A stretch of 30,743 bases of DNA from an uncultured Pirellulales bacterium (GCA_964539795.1 CAZIKS010000006.1:9738-40480); one strand, 5' to 3'. Shown: positions 13,673 through 30,280, counted from the stretch's first letter. Program-made: numbers and translations. Notes: a model not told the origin generated them from the sequence alone.

Positions 13673-14842
13673 CTAATCCGACTTCAGAAAATACTCGAAG
13701 AAATTATATATCTGGCTGTTGGATTCAGGCGTCGGTGTATGTCCTTTCCGGTTGGTCATAGCTACTCTGTTCTTATATCCGAGGATGTCATTCACAGCGA
13801 TTGTGTGATTCAGTGCCTTCCACCTTTCCGCGGTATCCTCCGAACCGCCGGAGACAAGAAAAGGTCTCGGAGCCATAAGAGCGTGTACTTCATGCAGGTC
13901 ATGACCTTCTTCGACAAGCTTTTTATAGGCCCCGGTCCGTGGCTTGTCCTTACTCGGAACACCTGCTTTCCGCTGTTTACCGGATTCCCACCCAAGATAC
14001 CACGGCTCCCAATAGTTCACGTTCGGACGAGTTTCATCAAAGACAATTCCCGGGTCGGACCAAACTGCACATGCAAACTTTTCGTAAAAACATGAGCCGA
14101 ACATTGCCCACTTGCCTCCATAAGAATGCCCTATGATGCCTATTCGTTCGCCATCCACTTCGGGCAACTCTGCAAGAACCGTATGGCAGTTCGCTGCAGC
14201 ATAGGCCAGTGCAGACAGGGGCTGAAGGGCGGCCTCTCCACTGGATTCGCACAAAGGTTTATAATTGGGTTTCAGCCTGCAGAAATCAGGTGTCCCGATT
14301 GACAGAACTACAAAGCCGCGTTTGGCCAGCTGATATCCGAAATCAAGGTTTTCCTTACCTAACCCCACTGCCGTCCCCGCATCATAAAACACTACCACAA
14401 CGGCCGGCAAAGGCCCCTTGTCTTCAGGTATCAAAAGATACCCGTTTACAGTCTGTTTGCCGGGGGCGATTTCAATTCGCACTCGATGCTGTATGAAATT
14501 ATCGCGTTTGGTTTTTTCGAGTTCTTCAATACCCGGCTTTTTTAGCAATGGCGGCCATAAGCCGAGATTCTCTTCCCAGAATTTTAATATCTCTTCACGG
14601 CGTCTTTTCCAGTCTTCGGGCGTTTTAACTTTTTTTCCGTCACCAAACAACAGCGGCGATTTATATCCACCGTAATCATTTTCATATTCGGCAGGTGGCC
14701 CGAAGGCTTCCGCTATATTGGCGGGAATGTCCTTATCGGTGTTCTCTTTCGAAACTTTCTCACTTGCAGTCAACCGGCTGATACCGGTAAACATAAGTAA
14801 CACGACAAAACCAAATATCAGGATTCTTACACGGGCTGCCAT
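13673..14842 (-). CDS. Secreted alpha/beta-hydrolase-fold esterase (acetylxylan-esterase or dienelactone-hydrolase-like). It is a possible carbohydrate esterase.
   Basis: It has a signal peptide (MAARVRILIFGFVVLLMFTGISRLTA), the nucleophile elbow GHSYGG, and downstream acid/His regions (SDPG..., HALMAPRP). Confidence 0.75.
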   Translation of the reverse strand: MAARVRILIFGFVVLLMFTGISRLTASEKVSKENTDKDIPANIAEAFGPPAEYENDYGGYKSPLLFGDGKKVKTPEDWKRRREEILKFWEENLGLWPPLLKKPGIEELEKTKRDNFIQHRVRIEIAPGKQTVNGYLLIPEDKGPLPAVVVVFYDAGTAVGLGKENLDFGYQLAKRGFVVLSIGTPDFCRLKPNYKPLCESSGEAALQPLSALAYAAANCHTVLAELPEVDGERIGIIGHSYGGKWAMFGSCFYEKFACAVWSDPGIVFDETRPNVNYWEPWYLGWESGKQRKAGVPSKDKPRTGAYKKLVEEGHDLHEVHALMAPRPFLVSGGSEDTAERWKALNHTIAVNDILGYKNRVAMTNRKGHTPTPESNSQIYNFFEYFLKSD

Positions 14843-14885
14843 TAACTAAATCCTCCTTACCTTATACTTTATTTGTTCAACCGTC

Positions 14886-14940
14886 TATAATATCAAAATA
14901 TTCTTACGGCTGCAATCGATGAGTTTTTAATTTAGTCCTG
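14886..14940 (+). repeat. Truncated or degenerate repeat-family copy R4, upstream of the hydrolase gene
   Basis: Only the left-hand modules are present: ataatatcaaaatattcttacggctgcaatcgatgagtttttaatt. Confidence 0.3.
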
Positions 14941-14989
14941 GAAGATTACAAAATTATATCACAAAAGTATAAACCTTTGAAAAATTATA

Positions 14990-16012
14990 CTATGATTTTT
15001 GTTCGAGTTCGGCACGGAATTTCGGCAGAGCGTTCGGGTAATTATCCCGCAGGAATTCAACTAACTTTTCTCTTATATGACAGCGTAAGCTCCAGGCCAT
15101 TGAGGCGTCGGCGGCGCTCATTAAGGCCCTCAGTTCCACCGTTTTTTCAGTGGTCTTTGTTACCTGAAGAACGCATACCTTTTTGTCCCAAAGCTCTGAT
15201 TCGTTGAGCAATTCCTGGAGTTTTTGGCGGATTGCATCGACCGGTACGCTGTAATCCACATATATGAAAACGGTTCCGAGTATATCAGCCGACTTTCGCG
15301 TCCAGTTCTGGAACGGTTTTTCTATGAAGTATGTTATTGGAACGATAAGACGACGCTGGTCCCAGATTTTTACCACTACATAAGTCAGGGTAATCTCTTC
15401 AATTCTGCCCCATTCATTTTCAACGATAACAACATCGTCGATACGTATCGGCTGGGTAAATGCTATTTGCAGTCCCGCGATAAAAGTGCCGATGGTCCTT
15501 TGTGCGGCCATACCCACGACGATCCCGATTATACCCGCTGAAGCGAGAATTGTAGTACCAAGCTGGCGTATATTCTCAAAGGTCATTAGCATCGTACCCA
15601 GGGCAAGAATGCAGACAACTACGAAAACTATCCGCTTGAGCACACGAAACTGAGTGTATATTTTTCGGGCTCTCAGATTGTCTTTTGCTTCGACATTGAA
15701 ACGGGCAAGAAGAAATGCTTCCAGGACACTTGTTAATTTTATAATCAGCCAGGATACAGTGCCGATAAATAGCAGGCTGAGTAGATGTTTTTCACCTTTA
15801 AAAGTTTCACCAGGTGCCATTGTTTGAATTATCACTCTTACGATAAACACTACGGCCGTCCATTGCAGAGGTCTGTACAGGTGGCTGACAACAGCTTCGT
15901 CGAGTGTCCCTTTTGTACGCCTGGCGATGGCAAGAAATATCCTGTACAATACGAAATGGCCGACCATACCTACTGTAAAAGCTATAAGAAATAACCATTT
16001 TACCTCATTCAT
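14990..16012 (-). CDS. mscS: Small-conductance mechanosensitive channel (MscS family). The ORF-track frame extends to 16072, but the ATG at 16010-16012 (MNEVKW...) is the likely start.
   Basis: Three N-terminal TM helices are followed by the MscS pore/beta-domain signature GTTILASAGIIGIVVGMAAQRTIGTFIAGLQIAFTQPIRIDDVV and the C-terminal cytoplasmic vestibule. Confidence 0.85.
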   Translation of the reverse strand: MNEVKWLFLIAFTVGMVGHFVLYRIFLAIARRTKGTLDEAVVSHLYRPLQWTAVVFIVRVIIQTMAPGETFKGEKHLLSLLFIGTVSWLIIKLTSVLEAFLLARFNVEAKDNLRARKIYTQFRVLKRIVFVVVCILALGTMLMTFENIRQLGTTILASAGIIGIVVGMAAQRTIGTFIAGLQIAFTQPIRIDDVVIVENEWGRIEEITLTYVVVKIWDQRRLIVPITYFIEKPFQNWTRKSADILGTVFIYVDYSVPVDAIRQKLQELLNESELWDKKVCVLQVTKTTEKTVELRALMSAADASMAWSLRCHIREKLVEFLRDNYPNALPKFRAELEQKS

Positions 16013-16082
16013 AATTGACCTCTTAACAAAGATTTCCCATTTATATCTGCTCGGTAAAGTTACAAACCTCAATTTTTATACA

Positions 16083-16275
16083 ATATCAAATATGCCTTGA
16101 AAATCAACCTTCCTTATGGAATCTGAGTCTTGACTTGTCGTAAAAGCCGCCAAAATCCCAAATAGCCCACAAAACCACAAAAATTTTTAATCCATCAGAC
16201 TTGTAATATCAAAGAATTAAAAAATCGCAAAAATGACGAACATTTTGAACATCCGATTGCTGCCGTCTTTGCTGC
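16083..16275 (+). repeat. Intergenic repeat-family copy R5 (full length), upstream of mscS
   Basis: The modules are aatatcaaatatgccttgaaaatcaaccttccttatgg, ccaaaatcccaaatagcccacaaaaccacaaaaat, aatccatcagacttgtaatatcaaagaa and the core aatcgcaaaaatgacgaacattttgaacatccgattgctgcc. Confidence 0.75.
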
Positions 16276-16450
16276 TGTGATTGGTGAACGTAGAGGTGGA
16301 GTGACTCTTCTGATAAGTTCGGCGATTTATTATAATTTCACATCTCTAATCTTTAGTGATATGTCTCTCTTTCTCAATTCTAAGAGAAACTTTCTACAAG
16401 CTGTTTTTGCTCGCTCATCAATACCTCTTTGAGTCCCGCCTCAGAAGTCT

Positions 16451-16942
16451 TTAGACTGCGCCCCATAATTCCAGGTGCCGAATGACATCTCCTGACTTAA
16501 TAGTGGTTCCGTTGTGGCAACCGGTAACGTTGCAGATTGAGATGGCGTTATTATAATCCAGCTTCGGCGTTAAGCCGATGACGACCATATCCGCCTCAGG
16601 TTTGCAGCTGCAGCTTACCAGCTTCTTGAACATAACACCGCAGTGGGGACAGTATAATTCGTCTTTCACTCTGTCTTCCAGCTTGCCTGAAAGGATAACC
16701 TTGTCGAAATCGCCCTGTATGGCCGAGAGGACGAGTTCGCCTTCCATGCCGGCTCGCTTATATTTGACTCGCAGGCCGGCAACGCCGTTTATCTTGTGTT
16801 CCTCATCAATAATACTACAGCCGTTCGGACAGTATGCTTCGGTAACAACATATCTTACTTCTTGCTCCTCCGTCCGTCGTGTACTCGCCTTCCGCTTTAT
16901 CAGTGGAATAATCAATTTCCCGTCTTTACCGAATCGTTTCAT
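16451..16942 (-). CDS. Cysteine-rich hypothetical protein (163 aa) with several CxxC-type pairs. It is a putative Zn-ribbon or metal-binding protein.
   Basis: The motifs are CPNGC, CPHCG, CSC-x-KPEA and CNVTGCHNG. It is flanked on both sides by copies of the repeat element. Confidence 0.55.
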   Translation of the reverse strand: MKRFGKDGKLIIPLIKRKASTRRTEEQEVRYVVTEAYCPNGCSIIDEEHKINGVAGLRVKYKRAGMEGELVLSAIQGDFDKVILSGKLEDRVKDELYCPHCGVMFKKLVSCSCKPEADMVVIGLTPKLDYNNAISICNVTGCHNGTTIKSGDVIRHLELWGAV

Positions 16943-17084
16943 ATCTGACTCCGTATTAAAAGTTTGCTTCTCGGCTTTATCGAGACGTCAAAAACCAAAA
17001 ACTGGTATTCGCTTATCCGCGAGCGCTTTCAGCGCTTGGCCCGGCTGTTACAAATGGCCATTTACATTGTAGCTCTTTCCTTTT

Positions 17085-17228
17085 GAATTTACAACCGTAA
17101 TAAGTCGGAAAATGCCCCTGCAGCCAAAACAAAATATAAATCACAAAACTGCAAAAATCCTAAATCCATAAGGTTGATAAAATCAAAGTCTCTAAAAGAG
17201 TTAACATTTTGAATATACTATTGCCCTA
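17085..17228 (+). repeat. Intergenic repeat-family copy R6, upstream of the Cys-rich gene
   Basis: The sequence is cagccaaaacaaaatataaatcacaaaactgcaaaaatcctaaatccataaggttgataaaatcaaagtc...gttaacattttgaatatac. Confidence 0.7.
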
Positions 17229-17244
17229 ACATACATAGCTATCG

Positions 17245-19155
17245 CTACCAGCCTCCACCTCCACCTCCGCCGCCACCTCCGCCGCCACCACTGGACCCAC
17301 CTCCACTGCCCGAGCCCCTGGGTGACGAGGACAGGCTGGAACCGATAGCGGAGCTCATGGCAGACAACCCGCTTAACACAGATGATACAGACTCAGTACC
17401 CGCCAGTCCTGAAGAGCGTTGAGAATAAGGGCGGTAATAGGGAATATAGACATTCGAGACATCGGATATATGGCCGAGGTAATCAGTAGTGACGCCAAAA
17501 GCAATAGCCCAAGGTAGAAGGTCCTCGAAATTTAGACCCATTGTCTCACTGCGTTTGAGTGAACTGCGCATTTCTTGCAGACGCTGCATTATAGCTGCGC
17601 CTTGCTTACTTTTTCGGGCCATGGCAGCACCGGACATGCAAATCAATGAGCCGATGAAAACACCGGTAATACCTGTATCAAACATCCAGCCGCTGCTCTG
17701 GTAGTTTTTAAGCGACACTGTGAAAATCACTCCCAAACCGATAACAACAAAAGGAACAAAGAAAACACTTTTCAACAAACCTTTGAAACCGTTACGCTTC
17801 ACGTTGGATACGAGCATCATGCCGGGAATTCCAGCAAACATTGATCCCCACAAGGCAAAAAAAAGCACCTCCACATCCTCAATGGCCGCCAGTGCCAAAG
17901 AAGGCAAGATAACAATCACGCCTATCATAAGAAAAAGCATTTTGGCTTTTTTCGGCAGTATCACGAACCAGCCCAACGTTTGAACCTGTTGCCACGCTTT
18001 TTTCTTGATATTAGGAATGTGTCGATAAAAGTGATTCTCTAACTGGTCGCTGCTTACTTTTTGTCCTTCAGCTAAATGGTCCAGAAATAGCTTCTTTATC
18101 AGAAGTTCTTCGTAGCTGGCCAGTTCGTCTTTCTCAGGTACTTTAGCCAGTTCAAATTCGTAGCAACCGGGTTTGAGCATCTGCTTCTGTCTGATTTCAT
18201 CGATGTGAATATAACCCCGTCGGGCTAAGTCAATGATTGTCGCCGTTATATCCTGAACGTCAAAGCTCTCATCGATCAGTAGCCCAGCCAGCCCGGGCAT
18301 GATATTAAGAACGTCAATATTATAAACTTGTTGTGGTTCTGGTACCGGATCCCTGCCGACCTTAGACCATATGATTAATAACATAAGCACCGCTGCAACT
18401 GCACCAACTGGAAAGACCCAGGGCTTGATATGGAAGGTATAGGTATTAGTTGCACTGCTGTAATTTTCCAGCATGCCCTTTGGCAACGATACTTTTATCT
18501 CGAATTTGTCTTTCCGGTCGATTCCCTTGGCGCTGAAATGAACCAATCGTCTGTCTTGCTGATTGATTTGCCATTTTGCCTGAGGGGCCTCGGTATAAAA
18601 GATGACCTCGAGCAGGTCTGGCTCGACTGCTTCCGGAAGGGTCAGCGTTACAGCGGCCTCGTTAATGCGGTACTCGCAATCTCGAATCAGTGGTTTCCAG
18701 TAAAGAACATCACGCCTGCGATACTGACCAATAGCTCCCCTGATTCGATAGCGGATTTGAAAAGTGGTTGTTGTGTTGCTGTAGGGTGGATCCGCTGCAT
18801 TACGGCTGCGCCACTTGACATTAATCTTGCCTTTTACCTCTTCGACGATGTAGCCGCCCTTACGCCTGATACTGCCTTTCTCATAAACTTCATCGTTCTC
18901 ACTAACATCTATAATTTCAATCCCATCACATCCGTGCAGCGAGTAATAGCGATAAAGACCGTTCCAGTCTCCGCTTAGCCGTACCCGTTGTGTTTCCACA
19001 ACATCGATGGACGTGTCCCTGTTAAGGGTCATCTTCACATCAATATGCTCATAGACAAGCTGCCTCTGTAAAGCTATACCCGGCTTAGCTGAAAACGACA
19101 AAAAACCGGCCAACAAAAAAACCAAATATTTATATGGGATACGGCAACTATTCAT
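17245..19155 (-). CDS. DUF2207-family membrane protein. It has a signal peptide, a large extracytoplasmic domain, about 4 TM helices, a cytoplasmic region, and a Ser/Gly-rich tail ending in poly-Gly. The likely start is the ATG at 19153-19155 (MNSCRIPYKYLVF...), preceded by GAGGAA. The ORF frame continues to 19218.
   Basis: The architecture and the C-terminal ...SGSGGGSSGGGGGGGGGGGGGW tail are characteristic of DUF2207. A good RBS (gagagGAAcaaaATG) sits at the internal start. Confidence 0.78.
   Translation of the reverse strand: MNSCRIPYKYLVFLLAGFLSFSAKPGIALQRQLVYEHIDVKMTLNRDTSIDVVETQRVRLSGDWNGLYRYYSLHGCDGIEIIDVSENDEVYEKGSIRRKGGYIVEEVKGKINVKWRSRNAADPPYSNTTTTFQIRYRIRGAIGQYRRRDVLYWKPLIRDCEYRINEAAVTLTLPEAVEPDLLEVIFYTEAPQAKWQINQQDRRLVHFSAKGIDRKDKFEIKVSLPKGMLENYSSATNTYTFHIKPWVFPVGAVAAVLMLLIIWSKVGRDPVPEPQQVYNIDVLNIMPGLAGLLIDESFDVQDITATIIDLARRGYIHIDEIRQKQMLKPGCYEFELAKVPEKDELASYEELLIKKLFLDHLAEGQKVSSDQLENHFYRHIPNIKKKAWQQVQTLGWFVILPKKAKMLFLMIGVIVILPSLALAAIEDVEVLFFALWGSMFAGIPGMMLVSNVKRNGFKGLLKSVFFVPFVVIGLGVIFTVSLKNYQSSGWMFDTGITGVFIGSLICMSGAAMARKSKQGAAIMQRLQEMRSSLKRSETMGLNFEDLLPWAIAFGVTTDYLGHISDVSNVYIPYYRPYSQRSSGLAGTESVSSVLSGLSAMSSAIGSSLSSSPRGSGSGGGSSGGGGGGGGGGGGGW
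17248..17330 (-). repeat. Low-complexity (GGN)n coding repeat encoding the poly-Gly/Ser tail of the DUF2207 protein
   Basis: The plus-strand sequence is a simple repeat: ccagcctccacctccacctccgccgccacctccgccgccacc... Confidence 0.8.
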
Positions 19156-19267
19156 TTTGTTCCTCTCGAAAATTGACTCTGCATTCGGTTCGTCTTTATT
19201 ATATTTGAAATTTTCCAAATAACCCTGTATATCCTTTCTTAACTAACCTGCTAAGCCTCTTTCCCAA

Positions 19268-19435
19268 TAGAATATCAAGTCTGTCTTGAAATGCAACCTT
19301 TCTTATCGACTCTGTGTGATGCCCTTACGGCTGTAATTAGTAAGGAAAATTCATACAACCAAAATACAACCCAAACCCCAAATAGCTCATAAAATCGCAA
19401 AAATGATGAACGTTTGGAACTTCCGATTGCTACTC
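19268..19435 (+). repeat. Intergenic repeat-family copy R7 (full length), upstream of the DUF2207 gene
   Basis: The modules are aatatcaagtctgtcttgaaatgcaacctttcttatcga, ggctgtaattagtaaggaaaattcatacaaccaaaatacaacccaaacccc, aaatagctcataaaatcgcaaaaatgatgaacgtttggaacttccgattgct. Confidence 0.75.
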
Positions 19436-19572: not shown

Positions 19573-20742
19573 TCATTTGGTTGACTTGAATTTTGCAGAA
19601 ATGAACTTGAACAGCGCCTGGTCCTGAGGGCTTGGTGGTTTCGTCCGAAGTTGCTGAACATGGCGGCCAATTCGATATGCGCCGGTCAATCGCCACTTGT
19701 TCAATGTTGGAGGCAGCGAAAAGGCTAAAAAGAAAATCAGGAAAAAACATATTTCAAAATTCCACTCTGTGACAACGCCATAATAGTCAAGGACAAATGG
19801 CAGCAGTATTCCAGCCAGTAAGATGCAAATCGGTGCAATGAAAATTTTGTCATATCCGGGAATTATCAAACGGCCTGTAAAAATACGACCCATTAGGCTG
19901 ATAGGTGGATGATTGATACCGCCATAAACAACAATTCTCCAAAATGCCACAAGGACAGCTAAAGGCACGAGTAGGGCAGGTTGATAAGGTTCACTAATAA
20001 CCCAGCGGATAACGTGAAGCCACCACGTCAACAGCAGGCTAAATAGAAATGCTCCAAAATAGGACATATGAGTATCATCATAAGTTTTGAGGAATTTGAA
20101 AGGCCATCCGAGTTGTTCTATGGCCTTTTTTCGGAATTCTTTGACAGCGTCGATACTCCAGTATCGAGTATTCCAGGGGAACTCTTTTAAAAAACAGTGG
20201 AAACCGGCATAACACAAGAAATATAGAAAAATAAGCGCCAATATCGCAACATACAGGTTTGCAAATGGATAAAACACAAGGGGAGCAAGAAAAGGCAAAA
20301 GGACAATAAAAATGATCTGCTCTGCTTGGAATGTGAAAAAAATCATCACAAGGTAAACAATTAAAAAGGCAACAGCCGGTACAGGTGCTAAATGCGGTAT
20401 GTTGGAGTAGGCAAGAAGTGTCAATACCGCCAGTATGGCCAGATCTACCCATATAAGATGGACAGGGCCCTGTGGTAGCGGATTCTTTATTGACCAGGGG
20501 CTTAAGCAAAGCCATTGCCAATACTTACTGTTGTAGAATGGATGAAAAAAACGAACTCGATAGAAACCGTATAAGCCCGAAGCCAGAGCCAATATCAGTA
20601 TTCTGATTTTGAGTATTTCTTCAGGGATTTCAATACCCAGGCGGATAAGATAAAGGTCCATAAGGTATGTAAGCAGATAGAATGTGCTCAGTATAGCTGT
20701 AATATGTAGTGGTGGCAGGACCTGACGCCATTGTCTGTTCAT
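19573..20742 (-). CDS. Polytopic membrane protein (about 10 TM, 389 aa) of unknown family. It is translationally coupled (ATGA overlap) to the upstream ABC ATPase, so it is the putative permease/transmembrane partner.
   Basis: Hydrophobic helices run throughout and no recognisable ABC-2 or FtsX motif was seen. There is a 4-bp overlap with the ABC ATPase stop at 20739-20742. Confidence 0.7.
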   Translation of the reverse strand: MNRQWRQVLPPLHITAILSTFYLLTYLMDLYLIRLGIEIPEEILKIRILILALASGLYGFYRVRFFHPFYNSKYWQWLCLSPWSIKNPLPQGPVHLIWVDLAILAVLTLLAYSNIPHLAPVPAVAFLIVYLVMIFFTFQAEQIIFIVLLPFLAPLVFYPFANLYVAILALIFLYFLCYAGFHCFLKEFPWNTRYWSIDAVKEFRKKAIEQLGWPFKFLKTYDDTHMSYFGAFLFSLLLTWWLHVIRWVISEPYQPALLVPLAVLVAFWRIVVYGGINHPPISLMGRIFTGRLIIPGYDKIFIAPICILLAGILLPFVLDYYGVVTEWNFEICFFLIFFLAFSLPPTLNKWRLTGAYRIGRHVQQLRTKPPSPQDQALFKFISAKFKSTK

Positions 20743-21518
20743 GACTTCCTCCCATGAAGGTAGTTTTCGATATTGTCAAACACCTCAGGATGAATCAGTT
20801 TTTCAAGTACATCAGGTAGCCCCCCGCTGCAGCCTGCAACTTTTCGCAGGCCTTCTGCACTATCGTAAGCTAATATTTTACCCTGAGTTATTACAGCTAT
20901 CTTGTGTGCAAGCGATTCAACTAACTCTGGCACGGGCACAGCCATAACCACGGTGACATCTTTACGGTCGGCCAGACGTTTGAGCACCTGGCTCAAAGCC
21001 ATCAGCGCAGAGGAGTCAAGGCCCCCGGAAAACGGTTCATCAAGGATGAGAATGGAAGCTTCGCTCACCAGGGCCGAACATATACCGATTTTTTTTCTTT
21101 GCCCGGTCGAATAGGAATGAATGGGTGAATCGGCATTTTCGTGTAAATCGAATAGTTTCAAAAGCTGTTCGGCATGGTCCATCAAACGCTCTTCTTCAAC
21201 CTCGTAAACTCTACCCACAGCCAGTAAAAACTCACGGCCTGTGTTGTATAACGGCAGGTAAGGATTGTCTGGAAGGTAGAGAACTTTTTTGCGAATCTCG
21301 ATTTCCTCTTCGATACTGTTGCGGCGTCGATGGCCGTCGATTTCCACGTATCCCTTAATGGGCCACAGAACGCCGCCCATAAGACCGAGCAGGGTGCTTT
21401 TACCCATACCATTAGGCCCCATTATGGCAATTAATTCACCTGCTTCTACCGTCAAAGAAACATCTCTAAGAATCGGCTTGATACCATAATGGTGCCACAC
21501 ATTAACCACGTTTATCAT
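20739..21518 (-). CDS. ABC transporter ATP-binding protein (single NBD, no fused TMD)
   Basis: It has Walker A GPNGMGKST, the Q-loop, the ABC signature YSTGQRKK, Walker B ILILDEP and an H-loop. Confidence 0.92.
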   Translation of the reverse strand: MINVVNVWHHYGIKPILRDVSLTVEAGELIAIMGPNGMGKSTLLGLMGGVLWPIKGYVEIDGHRRRNSIEEEIEIRKKVLYLPDNPYLPLYNTGREFLLAVGRVYEVEEERLMDHAEQLLKLFDLHENADSPIHSYSTGQRKKIGICSALVSEASILILDEPFSGGLDSSALMALSQVLKRLADRKDVTVVMAVPVPELVESLAHKIAVITQGKILAYDSAEGLRKVAGCSGGLPDVLEKLIHPEVFDNIENYLHGRKS

Positions 21519-21643
21519 ATTTGCGTTCCCTTAAAATTTCCGCAGCTTTTTTTTCATAATCAACATTTTCTATGTCAAACAGTTATGAAAAGGCATTATA
21601 TGTCCCGTTCTGCAACTTTATTCATTTGCAAACCGGCTGGAAA

Positions 21644-23104
21644 TTATTCTTTTTTGTTAGAAGCATTTCCCGTTTTTGCCGGCTTATCAGAGGATTTACT
21701 TCGCTCTGAAACTGTAACAGCAGCTTTATCATCCGGCATGTCACTAATTTCCTGTAGTCTCTTTGCTAAGTCGATTCCGGTAGCAGCTTTCATCTGTTCC
21801 AGAAACTTTACAAGAGCTCCAGGGGCGGCGGTCATAAGTCGGTTTACTGCACTGTCACCATCCCCGCCTCCACTGTCGATAGCAACAACATTGTCAAACT
21901 TAACCTGGCCGATAGATTTGGCTCCTGCATCAGCAACTGTTTTGATAGCCTCTAAAGCGAGATTAAGTTGTGCTGCTTTTCCATAGGCATTCCAGGCTTC
22001 AGCTTTCTTCCGCAAGCCTTCAGCCTCAGCTTCGAGTTGTAATTGAGTGCCTTTGGCTCTTGCTTCGGCTACTTTCAAAATAGCCTGACTTTCACCTTCG
22101 GCTTTAAGAATAGCCGATTGTTTCTCTGCATCAGCAGGCACAACAACTTCCGCCCGGTACTTTTGCTCTTCAGCCTCTGCTTTGGCTGCCTCAACTTTTT
22201 CTCTTGCTCTTTGTTGCTCTTCAAGGACTTTCTGTTCCTGAATAACAACCTCCTGTCTTGCTTTTGCTTCGGCAAGAGGACCTTGTTGTTCGGCTTTCTT
22301 GGTAGCAGCAAGAGTTTCACCATGGTACTGCTGTCTTGCAACATCACGATTTTTTTCCGCTTCTGCGATCTGTTTCTCCTGTTCAGCCCTGACGACTTCG
22401 CCCTCTCTTCTGGCAGTTTCTGATTCCTGCATTGCATCTCTGTCGGCTTCTGCCTGCCCAATTGCCGCATCCCTTTTAACTTCGGCGGTTCTCTTTATTC
22501 CAAGAGCTTCAAGATATCCTCTTTCGTCACGAATATCCTGAATGTTGATGATGTCAATTATCACACCAATTTTGGCTAATTCCTCACCGGCCTGCTCAAG
22601 AACTTTGTTTACAAACATATCTCGCTTTTGGTAAAGCTCCTCAACAGTCAAAACACCGATAATATCACGCAGTTGCCCTTCCAGTGTTTCTTTAATAATC
22701 TGTTGAATTTGTCTGTCGTCTGTTCCAAGAAACCTTTCTACTGCTCTGGCAATCATTCCTTCCTCACCGGATATCTTCACATTTGCAACAGCATCAATAG
22801 TTACAGGAACACCTTCTTTTGAATATGCCTTTTCTACTCTTACATCAGCAAGATTCATTGTCTTAAGGGAAATTCGATTGACTTTTTCCAAAACAGGAAT
22901 TTTGAATTTGGCCCCGCCGACAATAGCTCTCCATCCCCTGACAATAACAGTTCCATCTTTGGTTTTTACCTTGTTTTTTCTTCCTGTGAAAATCAACGCC
23001 TCGTTTGGTTCTGCTTTCAACCAGTTATTTGCGAGAATCAGCACAATCGAAATTCCCGAAACAACCAGAACGGCAATAACAATTATCAAACCTAAACTCT
23101 CCAT
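21644..23104 (-). CDS. Flotillin-like SPFH/band-7 protein (YqiK/FloA-type). It has an N-terminal TM anchor, an SPFH domain, and a long Ala/Glu/Lys/Gln-rich coiled-coil region.
   Basis: The N-terminal TM is LGLIIVIAVLVVSGISIVLILA. The SPFH core and the EA-rich flotillin repeats (AEAEKNRDVARQQ..., EAAKAEAEEQKYRAE...) are present. Confidence 0.9.
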   Translation of the reverse strand: MESLGLIIVIAVLVVSGISIVLILANNWLKAEPNEALIFTGRKNKVKTKDGTVIVRGWRAIVGGAKFKIPVLEKVNRISLKTMNLADVRVEKAYSKEGVPVTIDAVANVKISGEEGMIARAVERFLGTDDRQIQQIIKETLEGQLRDIIGVLTVEELYQKRDMFVNKVLEQAGEELAKIGVIIDIINIQDIRDERGYLEALGIKRTAEVKRDAAIGQAEADRDAMQESETARREGEVVRAEQEKQIAEAEKNRDVARQQYHGETLAATKKAEQQGPLAEAKARQEVVIQEQKVLEEQQRAREKVEAAKAEAEEQKYRAEVVVPADAEKQSAILKAEGESQAILKVAEARAKGTQLQLEAEAEGLRKKAEAWNAYGKAAQLNLALEAIKTVADAGAKSIGQVKFDNVVAIDSGGGDGDSAVNRLMTAAPGALVKFLEQMKAATGIDLAKRLQEISDMPDDKAAVTVSERSKSSDKPAKTGNASNKKE

Positions 23105-23165
23105 AATAATTCTCCTTTACTTAAAATTATATTAGTGTTTTTATTGCTAGCTTACAAAATGACTT

Positions 23166-23726
23166 CTACTCCACAACTGCCGTTTTTCCCGCAACCGACT
23201 TTATTTTGACAAACTCTCCTCTTTTGTATTCTCTCTCGGGATCAGCCGCTCTTGCATTGAAGTAAGTACTTTGACCTGTTTGTTCGTTGGTTGCTTCTAT
23301 TTCGCCGGTACCTCCGTCTTTTGGTATTGGAACAACCACTCTGCCCTGTTTCCCGACAAATGAGGCCAGCCTAATCTGGCTTGTTGATTGTTGTTTGTAC
23401 AGAAGCTTAAGCAGATTATAACCGAGAAACCAGGCTGTTCCTCCACCGACCAGACCACAAATAACATGATGGAGGGGCCACTTAAAATAAAAAGACAAAT
23501 ATCCGCCTGCGCCAAAACCAACCAGGAAAAATAATATCAGTTTTAAACTTAATATACCGGGCTCTCCGAAATCGCCTGCACCTGCGTCTACATCCAAATC
23601 CGCATCAATATCCATATCGACATCTGCGTCAACATCTGTATCTGCGCCGAACACCGCCATTAATACCAGAAGCAGGCCGGGTATAATGGCCAGCAGACCA
23701 TAAATTAATAATACACTCATAATCAA
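23166..23726 (-). CDS. NfeD-like (YqiJ-type) membrane protein with a C-terminal OB-fold. It is the partner of the adjacent flotillin.
   Basis: It has two TM segments, an acidic D-rich loop (DTDVDADVDMDIDADLDVDAG), and a C-terminal beta-rich domain (GKQGRVVVPIPKDGGTGEIEA...GEFVKIKSVAGKTAVV). It is positioned immediately upstream of the flotillin gene, as in yqiJK operons. Confidence 0.75.
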   Translation of the reverse strand: MIMSVLLIYGLLAIIPGLLLVLMAVFGADTDVDADVDMDIDADLDVDAGAGDFGEPGILSLKLILFFLVGFGAGGYLSFYFKWPLHHVICGLVGGGTAWFLGYNLLKLLYKQQSTSQIRLASFVGKQGRVVVPIPKDGGTGEIEATNEQTGQSTYFNARAADPEREYKRGEFVKIKSVAGKTAVVE

Positions 23727-23767
23727 TCTCCTTTCTGAGTATTGCCTGTTTTTCTAAATCGAAATTT

Positions 23768-23808
23768 CAAATCGCAACGCCTGCAAAAAACACGAACTCC
23801 GAATCCAC
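23768..23808 (+). repeat. Isolated copy of the repeat core motif, lying between ybjQ and the nfeD-like gene inside the cluster
   Basis: aaatcgcaacgcctgcaaaaaacacgaactccgaatcc aligns to the core aatcgcaaaaatgacgaacgttttgaacttccgattgc. Confidence 0.45.
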
Positions 23809-23809
23809 G

Positions 23810-24124
23810 TTACTCCACTACGACCGCTGTGCCGTAGGCTAAAATTTCCGATGCGCTCTGCATAACCATTGATGTGGCAAATTTCATACCCACAACCGCA
23901 TTTGCACCGAGCTTTTGTGCCTCTTCTATCATTCGGTCGATTGCCTGTTCCCGGGATTCGGCCATCATCTTCGTATAATCGCTTATCTCTCCTCCAACCA
24001 GGTTTCTAAGGCCCGCCATAATGTCTCTTCCGATATGCCTGGCACGAATCGTATTACCTCGAACAAGCCCCAGATGCTTTATAATTTTTCTCCCCTCGAT
24101 ATCTCCAGTCGTCGATAGCAGCAT
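23810..24124 (-). CDS. ybjQ: YbjQ/UPF0145 family protein (putative heavy-metal-binding domain)
   Basis: Collinear with E. coli YbjQ in MLLSTTGDIEGRKII..., RNLVGGE and LGANAVVGMKF...YGTAVV. It starts 4 nt after the anti-sigma stop. Confidence 0.85.
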   Translation of the reverse strand: MLLSTTGDIEGRKIIKHLGLVRGNTIRARHIGRDIMAGLRNLVGGEISDYTKMMAESREQAIDRMIEEAQKLGANAVVGMKFATSMVMQSASEILAYGTAVVVE

Positions 24125-24128
24125 TTTT

Positions 24129-24575
24129 TTATCTCCTTACATCTTTGTAACGGTCTTTTTTCCAGAAATAAAGTCTTTCCCGCAATACTGACACAAACAA
24201 AATTGCCAATCCCGCTATCAACGCCAAGAGGCCAGCTTTTAATATAATATCGACGGTCGGGTCTTTGATGAGATCTTCTATCGCCTTGAAGCCGCCGTAT
24301 ATCAACAGCAGGATAGCGGATATTGAAAACAAAATCCACCCCACGCCTCGCTCGATACGGTTATACACACCTGACCAGTACAGCCTCCATATCCGATCTT
24401 CGGGCTCAACGAACTTTACTTCGTCAGTGATTCGATTCAGACGCTTAAACTCTTCCAATTCCCCCCTGCATACAGGACAGGATGCCAAATGTTCTTCAAA
24501 AACCTTTTTTTGCTCACAGTCAAGCTCATCGTCCAGATAAGCCATCATCAAATCTACATAATCGGGGCAAGTCAT
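24129..24575 (-). CDS. Membrane-anchored anti-sigma factor with a zf-HC2 motif
   Basis: The N-terminus carries H-x3-C-x2-C (HLASCPVCRGE). A single TM helix (ILFSISAILLLIYGGF...LLALIAGLAILFVSVL) follows. It lies directly downstream of an ECF sigma gene. Confidence 0.8.
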   Translation of the reverse strand: MTCPDYVDLMMAYLDDELDCEQKKVFEEHLASCPVCRGELEEFKRLNRITDEVKFVEPEDRIWRLYWSGVYNRIERGVGWILFSISAILLLIYGGFKAIEDLIKDPTVDIILKAGLLALIAGLAILFVSVLRERLYFWKKDRYKDVRR

Positions 24576-24592
24576 TGCTGCCTACCTCCTTT

Positions 24593-25153
24593 TTATTTGT
24601 CTAAAAGCTCTTTTAGTTTTTTACGTGCATTATATAACCTGCTCATCACAGTGCCTCTCGTGCATAAAAGAATCTGAGCAATCTCTTCGTAAGAAAGGTT
24701 CTGAAAGTGTCGCAATACTATCATCTCGCGATGTTTTTCATTGAGCTGGTCAATCGCTTTCCAAACACGTTCCTCTACCTCATTTCTTTCTGCAACTGCA
24801 TGTGGGTCAAAACAGCTGCCGGCACTGCTCGCAACTTGGACATCGTCAACTTCTTCTAAGTTCTGTTGATGACGCCCGCTCCGCTTTCTCAAGTGACTAA
24901 AACACAGGTTTTTCAGAATCTGATAGAACCAGGGAAAGAATTTTCGTTTTGGATTAAGCTGATTTATCTTGGAATATGCCCTGAAAAAGGCCTCTTGAGA
25001 CAGGTCCAGTGCATCTTCATGATTACCCACAAGCCCGAGCGCAATAAAATATGCCTGTTTCATATATTTTCTGACAATAGCTTCAAATGCTTTTGCAGAC
25101 CCCCTCCGACATTGCTGTATTGCTATAGATTCTTCTTCACAAAAGCAGTTCAA
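24593..25153 (-). CDS. ECF sigma factor (RpoE-like, sigma-70 regions 2 and 4)
   Basis: Region 2 reads DLSQEAFFRAYSKINQLNPKRKFFPWFYQILKNLCFSHLRKR. Region 4 reads REMIVLRHFQNLSYEEIAQILLCTRGTVMSRLYNARKKLKELL. Confidence 0.9.
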   Translation of the reverse strand: MNCFCEEESIAIQQCRRGSAKAFEAIVRKYMKQAYFIALGLVGNHEDALDLSQEAFFRAYSKINQLNPKRKFFPWFYQILKNLCFSHLRKRSGRHQQNLEEVDDVQVASSAGSCFDPHAVAERNEVEERVWKAIDQLNEKHREMIVLRHFQNLSYEEIAQILLCTRGTVMSRLYNARKKLKELLDK

Positions 25154-25434: not shown

Positions 25435-25595
25435 GTTTGTAATGTGTGAGCAAAATCCATACAACTGTACTACAGCCAAAACAAAATATATCTCACAAAA
25501 CCGCAAAAATTACAAATCCATAAGACTTGTAATATCAAAGACTTTAAAAACTGCATAAAATGACAAACGTTTTGAACTTCCGTTGGTTGACCACG
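25435..25595 (+). repeat. Intergenic repeat-family copy R8, upstream of the ECF sigma / anti-sigma / flotillin cluster
   Basis: The sequence is cagccaaaacaaaatatatctcacaaaaccgcaaaaattacaaatccataagacttgtaatatcaaagactttaaaaactgcataaaatgacaaacgttttgaacttccgttgg. Confidence 0.75.
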
Positions 25596-25863: not shown

Positions 25864-27216
25864 CTAATTTCTTCGGGAAGACGTTACCCAGTCTTCCGTT
25901 CTGGTGCCGTGGTATGTCGTTAGCGTATACTCAAACTTTCTAATTGAATTAGGCTCAACCATCAGGGTGAATTTAATCGTATCCAGGTCAACTTTTTCAA
26001 ACTGGCCAAAATCGCCGTTTTTCTCAAGATTCCAATACTGAGTACCAAAGTTTCGCTGAATTTCAACCTTTACAGGAAGCTCACGCGTATTTCTCACCTC
26101 GATACTGAATTTTCGAATCTCATCCCAGCCTGCTATATTCTTTTTATTATTGAATCTGTAGTTTTCCGTCTTGAAGTCCAGAAGCTTGGGTTCAACAACT
26201 ATATCAGCTACCGGGCCAAGGCTTAGCTCTACATCTTCATCTACGGGAATATACTTGAAGCTTGACTGGCCGACATAACCGAGGTGCTGCTCGTTATCGA
26301 CGCCCCTGTAAACTTTTAATATGCCTCCGGGAATGGGTGTATCGCCGAGCTTATGCTCTTCGTCGTTTTTGAAACTTAGAAATCTGATAACGCTCGGCCC
26401 ATATCTTTTTTCTTCATATTTATACAGATTTACTACAGGGACCTCCTCGACATCAAAGCTAATCAGCCGTTTCGACCATCCGTTCGGAATCGTTTCTGTC
26501 CCTTCTATCGTATAAAGGAAATACTCACTCAGACCCTCCTTTTTGATTTCTTTGGGGGCCATATCTGCTTTGTCCATAGCCTTCATCATCTCTTCTCGTA
26601 CCTTAACACCCCTCTTGATAGGTGCTCCAACGAATATTGGCGCTGCTACACCGGGCCTGCCGTATGGGTATTGCCTTCTTGCTAAATCTGCGATTCTGTC
26701 AAGGATATGGACCTTACCGACAATCAGTCTTGTCTGGGCATTTTCATAGTCTTCTCCGCTGTTGTTGGTAACTCTGACATAACCCTGCAGACGCATTGAC
26801 TTTTCATCTTCGGTTAAAGTACCCATGTAAAACGCTCGCCAGGAAAGCCCGCTTGTCAGATACGTAATCTCTACCGGTACTTTACCGCCAAAGCTGCTTT
26901 CAATATTCCACAGGCCCAAGTTTGTCACCCTCGCCGGATAAGTTAATTCCGCGATGTCGATTCTATCTGCGTTTGTTTTGGGCAGCATCTCCAGACTCGT
27001 TGGGTCGATAAGTGTATTCGCCCAGGAAAACTGTAGTTTGTTTTGTCCTTCTTTTAAGGTCAGTGCCCTGCTTTCCCGGGCCAATGTCATGTCTGCAGAG
27101 TTGTAAATAGTAAGCTGAACCGTGTCACGGCTGGGCAGCGTTACTAAATCTATCTTGGCCAAACCGGGCTTGCTTGCCGTGAAAATTATAAGTAAAGCAA
27201 ATATTATGCGTTTCAT
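25864..27216 (-). CDS. Secreted DUF4140/DUF4139 (MuiA-like) family protein, paralog 1
   Basis: A signal peptide is present. The protein is about 60% identical over the periplasmic domain to the C-terminal part of the fused anti-sigma at 28403..30280, for example LVTLPSRDTVQLTIYNSADMTLARESRALTLKEGQNKLQFSWANTLIDPTSL against VTLPRRDNVQITIYNSADLTLVREKRNLTLKKGWNWLQFMWANTLIDPTSL. The C-terminus is YTLTTYHGTRTE. Confidence 0.8.
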   Translation of the reverse strand: MKRIIFALLIIFTASKPGLAKIDLVTLPSRDTVQLTIYNSADMTLARESRALTLKEGQNKLQFSWANTLIDPTSLEMLPKTNADRIDIAELTYPARVTNLGLWNIESSFGGKVPVEITYLTSGLSWRAFYMGTLTEDEKSMRLQGYVRVTNNSGEDYENAQTRLIVGKVHILDRIADLARRQYPYGRPGVAAPIFVGAPIKRGVKVREEMMKAMDKADMAPKEIKKEGLSEYFLYTIEGTETIPNGWSKRLISFDVEEVPVVNLYKYEEKRYGPSVIRFLSFKNDEEHKLGDTPIPGGILKVYRGVDNEQHLGYVGQSSFKYIPVDEDVELSLGPVADIVVEPKLLDFKTENYRFNNKKNIAGWDEIRKFSIEVRNTRELPVKVEIQRNFGTQYWNLEKNGDFGQFEKVDLDTIKFTLMVEPNSIRKFEYTLTTYHGTRTEDWVTSSRRN

Positions 27217-27245
27217 TTTGGTTCTCCTTTGATTAGAGATTTTGA

Positions 27246-28406
27246 TTAGTATCTATAAATATCGATTTCCTTTCCCGGGCGAACATTTCGCCGATGGTAT
27301 CGCATCTTCAGTTCCTTCTTGCCGTGTGCCGGAAGTTTGATTTCAAATTTGAGCGTCTCGGCATCCTTGCGTTCATATTTAATATTACACTTTTTCATGT
27401 CCCACTGGCCTGGTATGTGTTGAATCATCGTGAGAACGGCGGGTTTGTCTTTGAAGTTTTCTAACTTTGCGACGATTTCCTCATCGGTATCGAAAAGAAT
27501 CACCTGGCCTCTGTTGTTTCTTCTTAAGTTGATTTGTTCATCTCTCATTTTCCGCTGGGTAACTACGATGTCCCTGCTGTCACCGATATAGAGTTCGGCC
27601 TTTTCACCGACGGGAATCTGTCCTGTTACATCTTCCCCTAAGAATATAGTACCTTCGTACCCGTCACCCTGGAACAGTCGGGCCTTGCCGCCCCATAGAG
27701 AAAATTCCCCTAAGCCGCTCTTCTTGTTGTTTGTGATTTCATAGCTCACAGGAATACCCACGTTCTGGTTTTCTAATTTCTCAGGGTCCCACGGCAGCTT
27801 CCCCGCATCGAATGTCCAGACCTTGCGAATAGGGACTTTATCGGCTTTTAGAAACAGCATCTGTTTGGTCTCCTCGTGGTCGATTCCCTGCTCGAAGGCC
27901 TCGCCGTAGTCCAAAAGTACCCGTGCCAGGTCAAAATCCTCTCCTGAAAAATTTCTTAGTACCAGGTAACTTTTCAAATCAACTGCAGTTTCGCCCTTGT
28001 CTGCGATGGCTTTATATGTTATCAGCCTGTCGATATTCCGGAGCAGATAACTGATACGGACCGTCTCGGCGTAGTCACTGTCACTGCTGATTTCCCACAC
28101 TAACGCAGCTTCATTGGGAGGATAGCTGACATTCAAAAGTGTCACCTTGTCGGGATGGTCGAGCACCGTCAGACGAATAGAGTCTGCATCGATACTGACG
28201 CCTTTCCATGAAAAATCCACCTTATTAAGGCCTTTCTGCAGCGTCAGCACGCGTTCTTCTTCAATCAGCGTAGCATACGGATTGTCCAGCCGAATCACTG
28301 TCGCTGCCCGCTCAGGCAGAGCTACAAGCTTAATCCTGCCATCTGCAATCCCGCTGCAAACAAACAACAGCAAAATCGCAATTAGTTTTCCTCTTTCAAT
28401 CTTCAT
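27246..28406 (-). CDS. Secreted DUF4139-like protein, a divergent paralog 2
   Basis: A signal peptide is present. The architecture matches in diverged form (LVALPERAATVIRLDNPYATLIEEERVLTLQKGLNKVDFSW; LRNFSGEDFDLARVLL against VTNNSGEDYENAQTRL). It has an ATGA overlap with the upstream gene and a 30-bp gap before the downstream one. Confidence 0.7.
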   Translation of the reverse strand: MKIERGKLIAILLLFVCSGIADGRIKLVALPERAATVIRLDNPYATLIEEERVLTLQKGLNKVDFSWKGVSIDADSIRLTVLDHPDKVTLLNVSYPPNEAALVWEISSDSDYAETVRISYLLRNIDRLITYKAIADKGETAVDLKSYLVLRNFSGEDFDLARVLLDYGEAFEQGIDHEETKQMLFLKADKVPIRKVWTFDAGKLPWDPEKLENQNVGIPVSYEITNNKKSGLGEFSLWGGKARLFQGDGYEGTIFLGEDVTGQIPVGEKAELYIGDSRDIVVTQRKMRDEQINLRRNNRGQVILFDTDEEIVAKLENFKDKPAVLTMIQHIPGQWDMKKCNIKYERKDAETLKFEIKLPAHGKKELKMRYHRRNVRPGKEIDIYRY

Positions 28407-30280
28407 GATTTGGTCTCCTTTGAATGTTGTTTTGTAAATATTTCTTCTCTGGTCCCATGATATGTTCTCACGCTATATTCAAAAGTCTTCTTACTTCGAG
28501 GTTCTATCTCAAGCGTAAAACGAGCGTGGGTGGCATCGTGTTTTTCGTAAGAAACATTCTGGCCCTCATACTCTAAATTCCAATACGCGGTATTAAAACC
28601 TCGGGTGATTTCAAATTTCACTGCAAGCTCGCGGGTATTGGTAACTTCCATTTTCCATCTGCGTAATTCATCCCAGCCGGTGATATTTTCATTAACATCG
28701 AAGACGAAGTTTTCCGTCCCAAAATCCGTCAAAACCGGTTCGACTCCGACCAGCCGGGCAGCGCCGAGATTTAGCTCAACCTCTTCATCGACCGGGATAT
28801 ATTTAATATTCGTTCCGCCTTTGTAAGATAGATGTCCTTTGTCATCCGCCAGTCCATAAATCTTCACATCTCCATCTGGAATCGGTGTATCGCCGAGATT
28901 GTGCTCCTCGTCATTGATGAAACTTAGAAATCTTATTGTCTGCTTACCCCAGCGCTGCTCATCATATTTGTATAAACTTTTGACTTCGATATCATCCACA
29001 TCAAACGAAAGCAACCGTTTGCCCCACTTATCAGGTATGCTTTCAGTGCCCTCAATGGTATAAAGGAAATACTCGCTAAGACCTTCTTTCATTATTTCCT
29101 TAGGCTTATATTTCTCAACAGGTATCCCTAATTTCCCGCTTTCATTCGAAAGTACATCCCCTAAGAAGAATTGTGATTTGGCCTCAGATTTCGAACGTCG
29201 GAGTGCATCTGGTCTGTTGTAGGGGTATTGACGTTTAGCCAATTCCGCTATTTCGTCAAGCTGGTGGACTTTGCCCACTATCAGCCGCGTCTGGGCATTC
29301 TCATAGTCCTCGCCGCTATTATTCGCTACACGGACATAGCCCTGCAGTTTCATTTTTTGCTCATCTGTTGAAAGTGTCCCCATATAAAACGCCCGCCAGC
29401 TAAGACCGCTTGTAAAATAAGTAACTTCAAAAGGCGCCTGCCCTTCGGCCTCTGAGCGAATAAGCCATCTGCCGATATCCTTGAGCCTCGCGGGAAATAC
29501 CAACTGCTGAATATCAATTTTATCTCCATCTTGCAGCGGTTCCAGGCTAAGCGAAGTTGGGTCTATCAGCGTATTCGCCCACATAAACTGAAGCCAGTTC
29601 CACCCCTTTTTCAGCGTCAGGTTCCGCTTCTCCCGTACTAAAGTCAGGTCCGCAGAATTATATATCGTAATCTGCACATTATCCCGCCGCGGCAATGTAA
29701 CCAGTTCGATAGCGCTGGCTGGAGCAAAAGGCGCTTTCTCCGGCACTTCTGCCCCGGTAATCATATCATCTGCGATACCTCTCATCCCTGTCCCGGCTTT
29801 CGGTTTCCCCGCTGCTCTTGCAGCTGCCACCTTCGTCTCAGCCGTAGCTCTTCTGTCAAAATCCATTCTTAAAGTTGCCTTAGACGAATCTTCATGCTCA
29901 AGTTCTTCTGCCGCTGGTCTTAGGCCTTTCGCAATTTGACGGCTTTGTTTTTCGTCTCTTCCAATGTCAGATACCAGCAGCGTCAATCCCATCAGCAAAA
30001 CCGCAGCCGCCGCACCCATCCATGCAGGCTTCCTGAACGCAAATATCGTCGATTTAGTGCCCCTCTTCGCTTGCTCTATAGTGTCGGAAATCAACTTATC
30101 GGAAACTTCTGCCTCTCCACGCAACAAATCCAGCGAAGCGAATTTACGTTTTAGCTGTTCAGCTCGCTGACGACAGTCGGCACAGCCTTTGAGGTGGCTG
30201 AAGATTTCCCCCGCCCGCCTCTCAGAGCCCAGCTCGAACTGATATTCTATAAGTTCTTTTTCTGTCAAGTGACGCTTCAT
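28403..30280 (-). CDS. Anti-sigma factor (zf-HC2 plus TM) fused to a periplasmic DUF4140/DUF4139 (MuiA-like) domain
   Basis: The N-terminus has H-x3-C-x2-C (HLKGCADCRQRAE). A TM helix follows (AWMGAAAAVLLMGLTLLVSDI), then a roughly 430-aa domain highly similar to the ORF at 25864..27216. Its start overlaps the ECF sigma stop by 4 bp (ATGA). Confidence 0.8.
   Translation of the reverse strand: MKRHLTEKELIEYQFELGSERRAGEIFSHLKGCADCRQRAEQLKRKFASLDLLRGEAEVSDKLISDTIEQAKRGTKSTIFAFRKPAWMGAAAAVLLMGLTLLVSDIGRDEKQSRQIAKGLRPAAEELEHEDSSKATLRMDFDRRATAETKVAAARAAGKPKAGTGMRGIADDMITGAEVPEKAPFAPASAIELVTLPRRDNVQITIYNSADLTLVREKRNLTLKKGWNWLQFMWANTLIDPTSLSLEPLQDGDKIDIQQLVFPARLKDIGRWLIRSEAEGQAPFEVTYFTSGLSWRAFYMGTLSTDEQKMKLQGYVRVANNSGEDYENAQTRLIVGKVHQLDEIAELAKRQYPYNRPDALRRSKSEAKSQFFLGDVLSNESGKLGIPVEKYKPKEIMKEGLSEYFLYTIEGTESIPDKWGKRLLSFDVDDIEVKSLYKYDEQRWGKQTIRFLSFINDEEHNLGDTPIPDGDVKIYGLADDKGHLSYKGGTNIKYIPVDEEVELNLGAARLVGVEPVLTDFGTENFVFDVNENITGWDELRRWKMEVTNTRELAVKFEITRGFNTAYWNLEYEGQNVSYEKHDATHARFTLEIEPRSKKTFEYSVRTYHGTREEIFTKQHSKETKS

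Follow-up and report, generated by a model that had tools for sequence, protein, structure and literature searches.

The seven co-directional genes at positions 19573-25153 of the window, by which we mean the whole 30,743-nt stretch of DNA from an uncultured Pirellulales bacterium (GCA_964539795.1, CAZIKS010000006.1:9738-40480) analyzed here, are three units and not one conserved module. Genes for an extracytoplasmic function (ECF) sigma factor, a zinc-finger anti-sigma factor and a YbjQ protein form a core trio. They are followed by a cassette encoding an NfeD protein and a flotillin-like SPFH protein, and then by an ATP-binding cassette (ABC) ATPase paired with a membrane protein of 389 amino acids (aa). 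The run is probably a mosaic of an autoregulated sigma-trio operon, a swappable NfeD/SPFH cassette and an unrelated ABC pair downstream.

All seven open reading frames (ORFs) lie on the minus strand, and the gene identities, order, strand and close packing given in a preliminary description of this DNA were all borne out. The sigma gene (24593-25153; 186 aa, TTG start) is separated by 17 nt from the anti-sigma gene (24129-24575; 148 aa), the stop codon of which lies 4 nt ahead of the start of ybjQ (23810-24124; 104 aa). An 83-nt gap (23727-23809), the left junction of the nfeD-flotillin cassette, precedes nfeD (23166-23726; 186 aa), followed after 61 nt by the flotillin gene (21644-23104; 486 aa) and after a further 125 nt by the gene for the ABC nucleotide-binding domain (NBD) protein (20739-21518; 259 aa). 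The latter is coupled by an ATGA overlap to the gene for the 389-aa protein (19573-20742), a member of an unclassified family and the presumed permease partner of the NBD.

Judged by gene order and protein alignment, the genes for the sigma factor, anti-sigma factor and YbjQ make up an unvarying set of three across a large group of Planctomycetota from sediment. From 215 relatives of the anti-sigma factor found in metagenomes, 80 loci were taken, and the order and strand of the trio were constant in essentially all of them. Wherever the contig was long enough (76 of 76 loci), ybjQ stood directly behind the anti-sigma gene, with a gap of 2-5 nt in 73. Protein identity across loci was 65-96% for the anti-sigma factor, 59-96% for YbjQ and 53-94% for the sigma factor, so that its two partners are better conserved than the sigma factor itself. 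The anti-sigma family comprises 1545 homologue clusters; among the 120 best listed, all but two have a length of 148 aa, and the named members are Planctomycetota/Phycisphaerae.

The sigma factor is a group 4 (ECF) member of the sigma-70 family. It has sigma-2 and sigma-4 domains only (Pfam Sigma70_r2 at residues 26-92 and Sigma70_r4_2 at residues 128-180, along with Sigma70_ECF) and neither region 1.1 nor region 3, scores 120 bits on TIGR02937 (cut-off 42.9), and is flanked by a zf-HC2 gene downstream and a conserved predicted promoter upstream. Its best equivalog-type matches are SigW models, both below their cut-offs (NF007223/TIGR02948; 118.4 vs 209 bits and 106.4 vs 243.1 bits). YbjQ aligns through residues 1-103 with the full length of PF01906 (model positions 1-103 of 103; 137.9 bits), placing it in the YbjQ/UPF0145 family.

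A bipartite motif, TGAA(G/T)(A/G)AA-N15-GT(C/A)T(A/G)T (TGAAKAAA-N15-GTMTAT), was present in 57 of the 62 loci whose sigma upstream regions were searched, with the spacing fixed at 15 nt and, in most loci, at a position 70-180 nt ahead of the start codon. The window copy (25243-25215, minus strand) consists of TGAATAAA (25243-25236), the 15-nt spacer and GTATAT (25220-25215), lies ~60-90 nt ahead of the TTG start, and is predicted to be an autoregulatory ECF-type promoter. The window was scanned at ≥8 bits with a position weight matrix (PWM) built from 43 non-identical instances of the motif, using 50 shuffles as a control. This was the single site returned from the whole 30.7 kb (24.6 bits; shuffle maximum 15.6), and there is therefore no second ECF-type promoter in the window: none was detected at this threshold before nfeD, the ABC genes, DUF2207 or any other gene. 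Matches to sigma-70-like promoters were no more numerous in the window than in shuffles. Internal promoters had been proposed as a possibility, but no ECF-like or sigma-70-like site stands out in the 83-nt or 125-nt gap.

To describe what lies behind the trio, neighboring ORFs were clustered in the 59 informative loci, those with at least 500 nt beyond ybjQ. The slot behind ybjQ holds a same-strand NfeD-SPFH pair in 33 of them. Thirty-one carry NfeD (PF01957, ~157 aa), behind which every sufficiently long contig shows an SPFH protein with Band_7 and Band_7_C domains (~318 aa), and in three of these an alpha/beta-hydrolase gene (peptidase S9-like) lies between ybjQ and nfeD; the other two (L047 and L049) have a YuaF-like nfeD and flotillin. 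The remaining loci contain the hydrolase alone (10), LemA-DUF3137 (2), a convergent ZIP transporter (6) or other genes (8). On this census the trio is the invariant core and the NfeD-SPFH pair its commonest cargo. In 15 of the 59 loci (L056, L076, L080, L090, L102-L104, L106, L107, L109, L112, L113, L116, L118, L120), the trio or its SPFH cassette is followed by a convergent gene for a ZIP-family zinc transporter.

A comparison of two close relatives showed how the slot can change its content. The DNA of L049 and L050 is 94.7% identical from the promoter through the ybjQ stop, where the similarity ends exactly, and 91.8% identical from ~20 nt past the SPFH gene through LemA-DUF3137. Between these borders L049 has nfeD-flotillin (2.2 kb) and L050 an NfeD-stomatin-like pair (1.5 kb). 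Because of this clean cassette swap, two SPFH classes can be said to share one operon slot in near-identical strains. The window matches the L049 layout to ~30 nt beyond the flotillin stop and then continues with the NBD gene, the 389-aa protein gene and DUF2207; behind flotillin, L034 and L049 have LemA-DUF3137. Outside the window, the exact order sigma/anti-sigma/ybjQ/nfeD/flotillin was observed only in L034, L047 and L049, which belong to the window's species-level lineage. Among 39 loci of flotillin relatives in species-representative genomes, L034 (proteins 92-98% identical) is the sole one with sigma/anti-sigma/ybjQ upstream, 36 have an NfeD-like gene ahead of flotillin (Sedimentisphaerales, Omnitrophota and Caldisericia bins), and the ABC pair is present in none. 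Conservation of the gene order, raised as a check in the preliminary description, is thus found in part: the trio and its association with NfeD-SPFH recur, but the five-gene order is confined to the window's lineage and the ABC pair stands outside.

The window NfeD-like protein matched no model in Pfam or NCBIfam (PF01957 was absent at E≤1), and a PDB sequence profile gave a marginal best hit (3cp0, E 0.46); two homologues with ~50% identity do match PF01957. Its identity was settled by structure comparison, in which YuaF was the best match. Its N-terminal part has three transmembrane (TM) helices, the first two (TM1 and TM2) joined by an acidic, D-rich loop, its C-terminal part forms an OB-like beta-barrel, and the gene is directly upstream of an SPFH gene, as in NfeD proteins of the YuaF/YqiJ type. 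The SPFH protein scores 89.8 bits on Band_7, 22.8 bits on Flot (PF15975; below the cut-off of 27) and 242 bits on NCBIfam FloT (equivalog cut-off 700). Its length, A/E/K-rich repeat region and YuaF-like partner all fit flotillin, of the SPFH2/FloT-YqiK type.

The same promoter motif was also recovered at nfeD-flotillin pairs that are not linked to the trio. In 609 kb of flotillin and ABC loci the PWM found only four sites of at least 16 bits. One of them precedes sigma in L034, and the unlinked nfeD-flotillin pairs of L006, L007 and L008 account for the rest (26-27 bits, coding strand; at distances of 118, 118 and 346 nt upstream, respectively). This is strong in silico evidence that nfeD-flotillin belongs to the regulon of this sigma family in part of the clade, and suggests incorporation of the pair into the sigma operon itself in the lineage of the window. 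In L008 a ~310-nt leader (2566-2879) separates the ECF-type promoter from nfeD; it is GC-rich and inverted-repeat-like, with no obvious ORF.

Chance adjacency, in which nfeD-flotillin landed by the sigma operon with no regulatory or functional tie, would account for the restriction of the exact arrangement to the window, L034, L047 and L049, for the T-run after the ybjQ stop, and for the 36 of 39 genome loci in which the pair stands by itself. However, the slot is otherwise filled by an analogous NfeD-SPFH pair, the borders of the swap are clean, and the ECF motif stands upstream of the unlinked pair in three relatives when none would be expected by chance. We therefore regard chance adjacency as very improbable. 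Since the slot swap is joined by the same motif upstream of unlinked pairs, sigma control of flotillin is well supported in silico. The sigma-controlled membrane-microdomain or envelope-stress response suggested in the preliminary description is, given the recurrent linkage, the cassette swap and the motif at unlinked pairs, the best reading of these in silico data.

Several observations weigh against this reading and against the mosaic as a whole. In 26 of the 59 loci there is no SPFH pair right behind the trio, its place being taken by the hydrolase, LemA, convergent ZIP or other genes. The motif is absent within 400 nt of unlinked nfeD-flotillin in the close relatives L009-L011, and more distant flotillin relatives also lack it. 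The genomes of L006-L008 are presumed to encode the trio. A T6 run follows a short possible hairpin after the ybjQ stop, and read-through into nfeD is assumed. Finally, the interval between flotillin and the ABC genes yielded no terminator, which leaves co-transcription of the ABC pair possible in the window's genome.

With regard to termination, the only convincing hairpin found was a strong terminator at 25826-25803, which closes the upstream DUF4139 operon. Folding of the four internal gaps gave z-scores near zero, none better than shuffled sequence. The run in the ybjQ-nfeD gap is T6-7 behind a short and variable hairpin in the four strains sharing this gap, an alignment of four close sequences only. 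Because nfeD-flotillin lacks a separate ECF promoter in the window, it would be expressed by read-through from the sigma promoter, which we consider likely.

The anti-sigma factor may indicate what kind of signal the system receives. It carries the N-terminal zinc motif C/H-x(23-26)-H-x3-C-x2-C of class I zinc-binding anti-sigma (ZAS) proteins (zf-HC2, PF13490, 43.5 bits). Two hydrophobic segments (~79-97 and 112-133) are split by ~13 residues, and its C-terminus is therefore predicted to lie back in the cytoplasm; by this sequence-inferred topology the protein is two-pass and not of the RsiW type. Across 72 sequences, conservation peaks at the zinc ligands, a juxtamembrane segment (EPED..W..YW...YNR.ER), the two TM helices and a basic C-terminal tail, LRERLYFWKKDRYKDVRR. 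Conservation reaches at least 95% at residues C3, H29, C33 and C36, in the juxtamembrane segment and in the tail, and is lowest in the ~13-residue extracytoplasmic loop between the helices. This pattern argues against a periplasmic sensor domain. With strong conservation in the TM helices, juxtamembrane segment and C-tail but a tiny and poorly conserved loop, the protein probably senses its signal inside the membrane or at the cytoplasmic face, perhaps with the participation of YbjQ.

Alternatively, the signal could be thiol-oxidative or metal (zinc) stress, with the ZAS zinc finger as the sensor, as in RsrA. In line with this, the four zinc ligands are invariant, the best NCBIfam match of the anti-sigma factor is the RsrA model (E 6e-7, below cut-off), YbjQ is annotated as 'putative heavy-metal-binding', and there are the convergent ZIP genes described above. 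We nevertheless consider a redox or metal signal unlikely. The anti-sigma factor is membrane-anchored with strongly conserved TM helices and tail, and the proteins that recur as output, NfeD-SPFH and LemA, are membrane scaffolds. ZIP is encoded on the opposite strand and largely within a single sub-clade, the metal label of YbjQ is annotation only, and the same zinc motif is found in anti-sigma factors that sense no redox state, such as RsiW.

The ABC genes had been described as members of the same module, a claim that did not hold. The NBD protein (PF00005, ABC_tran, 99.6 bits; best NCBIfam matches drrA and GldA) is by these profile matches closest to the DrrA/GldA type, and gene context indicates that it and the 389-aa protein are a separate module. 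A word-index search returned 63 homologues of the 389-aa protein, the named ones all Planctomycetota or Sedimentisphaerales. In all six distinct other contexts an NBD gene of 258-281 aa (259 aa in three) lies directly upstream of the homologue with an overlap of 1-4 nt, and one of the six holds two paralogous membrane genes. None of these contexts has a sigma factor, YbjQ, NfeD, SPFH or the ECF motif nearby. The pair was found in none of the 80 trio loci and does not follow flotillin in L034 or L049. In L047, what follows flotillin (3936-6419) is a frameshifted piece covering the ABC gene's first ~66 codons, and then genes for a TetR regulator and an RND efflux membrane-fusion protein; this decayed remnant shows recent turnover at the flotillin-ABC junction.

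These data also bear on the seven-gene reading, in which the whole run is a single sigma-controlled operon or module and both the ABC ATPase and the 389-aa protein are functional members that, for example, export or flip a membrane component together with flotillin. The genes are co-directional and the 125-nt gap contains no convincing terminator or promoter. Furthermore, since L047 retains a 5' remnant of the ABC gene behind flotillin, the junction predates the split of two strains. A seven-gene operon is nonetheless quite unlikely, given the six contexts without any of the other partners, the LemA-DUF3137 genes that take the place of the pair in L034 and L049, its decay in L047 and its absence from the 80 trio loci.

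The membrane protein was called unclassifiable with 10 TM helices in the preliminary description, and our results agree. Its AlphaFold model is confident and shows ~10 TM helices, and the protein has no match in Pfam or NCBIfam, no fold match in the PDB and no recognized ABC permease family or fold. The family comprises 1,644 clusters at 50% identity (homologues P0001-P0063 and P0298-P0437), and includes tandem-fused forms of ~800 aa and one ankyrin fusion.

The closest known system to the trio and its cassette is B. subtilis sigma-W/RsiW, which is alike in outline, although the window sigma factor is not a SigW orthologue. To our knowledge, the regulation of the much-studied flotillins and stomatin-like SPFH proteins is known mainly from sigma-W. 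Both systems have an ECF sigma factor, an adjacent membrane-anchored zf-HC2 anti-sigma factor, autoregulation by an ECF-type promoter (predicted in the window) and, on in silico evidence for the window system, NfeD-flotillin and NfeD-SPFH operons under the sigma factor. Read as hexamers the window promoter is TGAATA-N16-CGTATA, against TGAAAC-N16-CGTA for sigma-W. RsiW is single-pass, and the site-1 protease PrsW cleaves its extracytoplasmic domain, whereas the window anti-sigma factor is two-pass with a ~13-aa loop. In further contrast to sigma-W, YbjQ is a fixed third gene, the SPFH pair is in the same operon and not at distant loci, and the host is a member of the Planctomycetota and not of the Firmicutes.

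The cassette itself resembles E. coli yqiJ-yqiK and B. subtilis yuaF-floT (NfeD2-SPFH2) in having a 3-TM NfeD with an OB barrel encoded directly upstream of a flotillin of ~490 aa. It differs in that both proteins are too diverged for PF01957 or the FloT equivalog, in the acidic D-rich TM1-TM2 loop, and in its position behind sigma/anti-sigma/ybjQ. The type represented by E. coli ybbJ-qmcA(ybbK) and Pyrococcus PH1510-PH1511 (NfeD1-SPFH1) occupies the slot in most relatives but not in the window; we know of no sigma linkage described for these two model operons, nor of a function for the YbjQ/UPF0145 family. The B. subtilis sigma-W core regulon contains yuaF-floT-yuaI and yqeZ-yqfA(floA)-yqfB, and ECF control of NfeD-flotillin operons is thereby already established in that system (PMC3498285, PMC2636767). 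B. subtilis ECF promoters combine TGAAAC with CGTA (sigma-W) or CGTC (PMC5758882), and ybjQ of B. cereus is listed among sigma-B-regulated stress genes (PMC3788345). We found no literature linking YbjQ to an ECF sigma/anti-sigma pair. The preliminary view that this was not a described module therefore needs narrowing: control of NfeD-flotillin by an ECF sigma factor has a precedent in sigma-W, and what appears to be undescribed so far is the fixed YbjQ partner and the SPFH cassette within the same operon.

By analogy with B. subtilis sigma-W/RsiW, we propose that the anti-sigma factor would retain the sigma factor at the membrane until a perturbation of the cytoplasmic membrane, sensed in the membrane or on its cytoplasmic face, inactivates it. 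The released sigma factor would then transcribe its own operon from TGAAKAAA-N15-GTMTAT, including the two-pass zinc-finger anti-sigma factor, YbjQ and the NfeD-flotillin scaffold, and the scaffold may reorganize or stabilize the membrane. The scaffold cassette would occupy a variable slot in which the stomatin-like type was replaced by a YuaF-like NfeD and flotillin in the window's lineage, and the coupled ABC ATPase/389-aa pair would lie downstream by happenstance. YbjQ could be a cytoplasmic co-regulator acting on the conserved anti-sigma tail, or the first effector. In this scheme the gene architecture and its conservation, the promoter motif with its recurrence at unlinked nfeD-flotillin pairs, and the exchange of cassettes are direct observations; that the genes depend on the sigma factor in vivo, that transcription reads through, what the signal is and what YbjQ does are inferred. 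A more specific and decidedly tentative possibility is that YbjQ, from the widespread UPF0145/DUF74 family, is an obligatory third component of the sigma/anti-sigma switch. It would bind the conserved cytoplasmic tail of a two-pass anti-sigma factor that senses the state of the membrane from inside the bilayer, and would thereby tune the expression of interchangeable SPFH scaffolds of stomatin-like or flotillin type.

The window also contains a modular intergenic repeat family of ~85-110 nt upstream of six minus-strand genes or operons (minus-strand orientation; 7347-7457, 13343-13451, 16149-16261, 17123-17225, 19323-19431 and 25475-25588). Each copy combines a core (CGGAWGTTCMAAAYGTTC...TTTTTGCGATTTT) with one or both of two T/G-rich modules. 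The repeats are lineage-specific, kept at syntenic sites in the close relatives L045, L048 and L050, and distinct from the ECF promoter. No Rfam family matched in the window, and the repeats could be a small RNA, a MITE-like (miniature inverted-repeat transposable element) sequence or a regulatory site. The repeat core had been placed between ybjQ and nfeD; the 18-nt core CGGAWGTTCMAAAYGTTC matches three of the copies at ≤3 mismatches but nothing in that gap, which shares with the repeat only the 9-mer TTGCGATTT (23769-23777), a sequence that also occurs inside a coding region. The repeats were considered as the promoter of the sigma gene, in which case they would delimit a local regulon, and rejected, the promoter kept in 57 loci being a different sequence 230 nt further downstream. 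A sigma-54-like reading of the core (TGGAAC..TTGC) was likewise rejected: the spacing is one off, the GG is missing in other copies and the strand is wrong.

Further genes in the window include two other members of the sigma-70 family. A second ECF-type sigma gene (30277-30702, minus strand, cut by the window end) heads three DUF4139/MuiA-like paralogues (28403-30280, 27246-28406 and 25864-27216, minus strand) in the operon 25864-30702 that ends at the terminator described above. The third sigma-70 family protein (1306-3186, plus strand) has ECF-like sigma-2/sigma-4 domains in its first ~180 aa and a C-terminal extension of ~440 aa without a Pfam match. Downstream of the ABC pair is an envelope-related run on the minus strand (13673-19218), with DUF2207 (17245-19218), a 163-aa protein, an MscS-family channel (14990-16072) and an alpha/beta hydrolase (13673-14842). 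Most of these genes are preceded by a copy of the repeat, and the ECF promoter motif is upstream of none of them.

The sigma family described here, which spans at least 1,500 anti-sigma clusters in Phycisphaerae/Planctomycetota, physically joins a regulator to membrane-scaffold genes. The exchange of both SPFH classes in the same slot argues that they are interchangeable in function, each serving as an output of one stress circuit. Membrane proteins coupled to an ABC ATPase gain a large and so far unannotated family with the 389-aa protein, which has no match among solved structures. The invariant, translationally coupled linkage ties YbjQ/UPF0145 to a defined regulatory unit and, if the reading of YbjQ as a component of that unit is true, it would be part of a dedicated control circuit for bacterial membrane microdomains.

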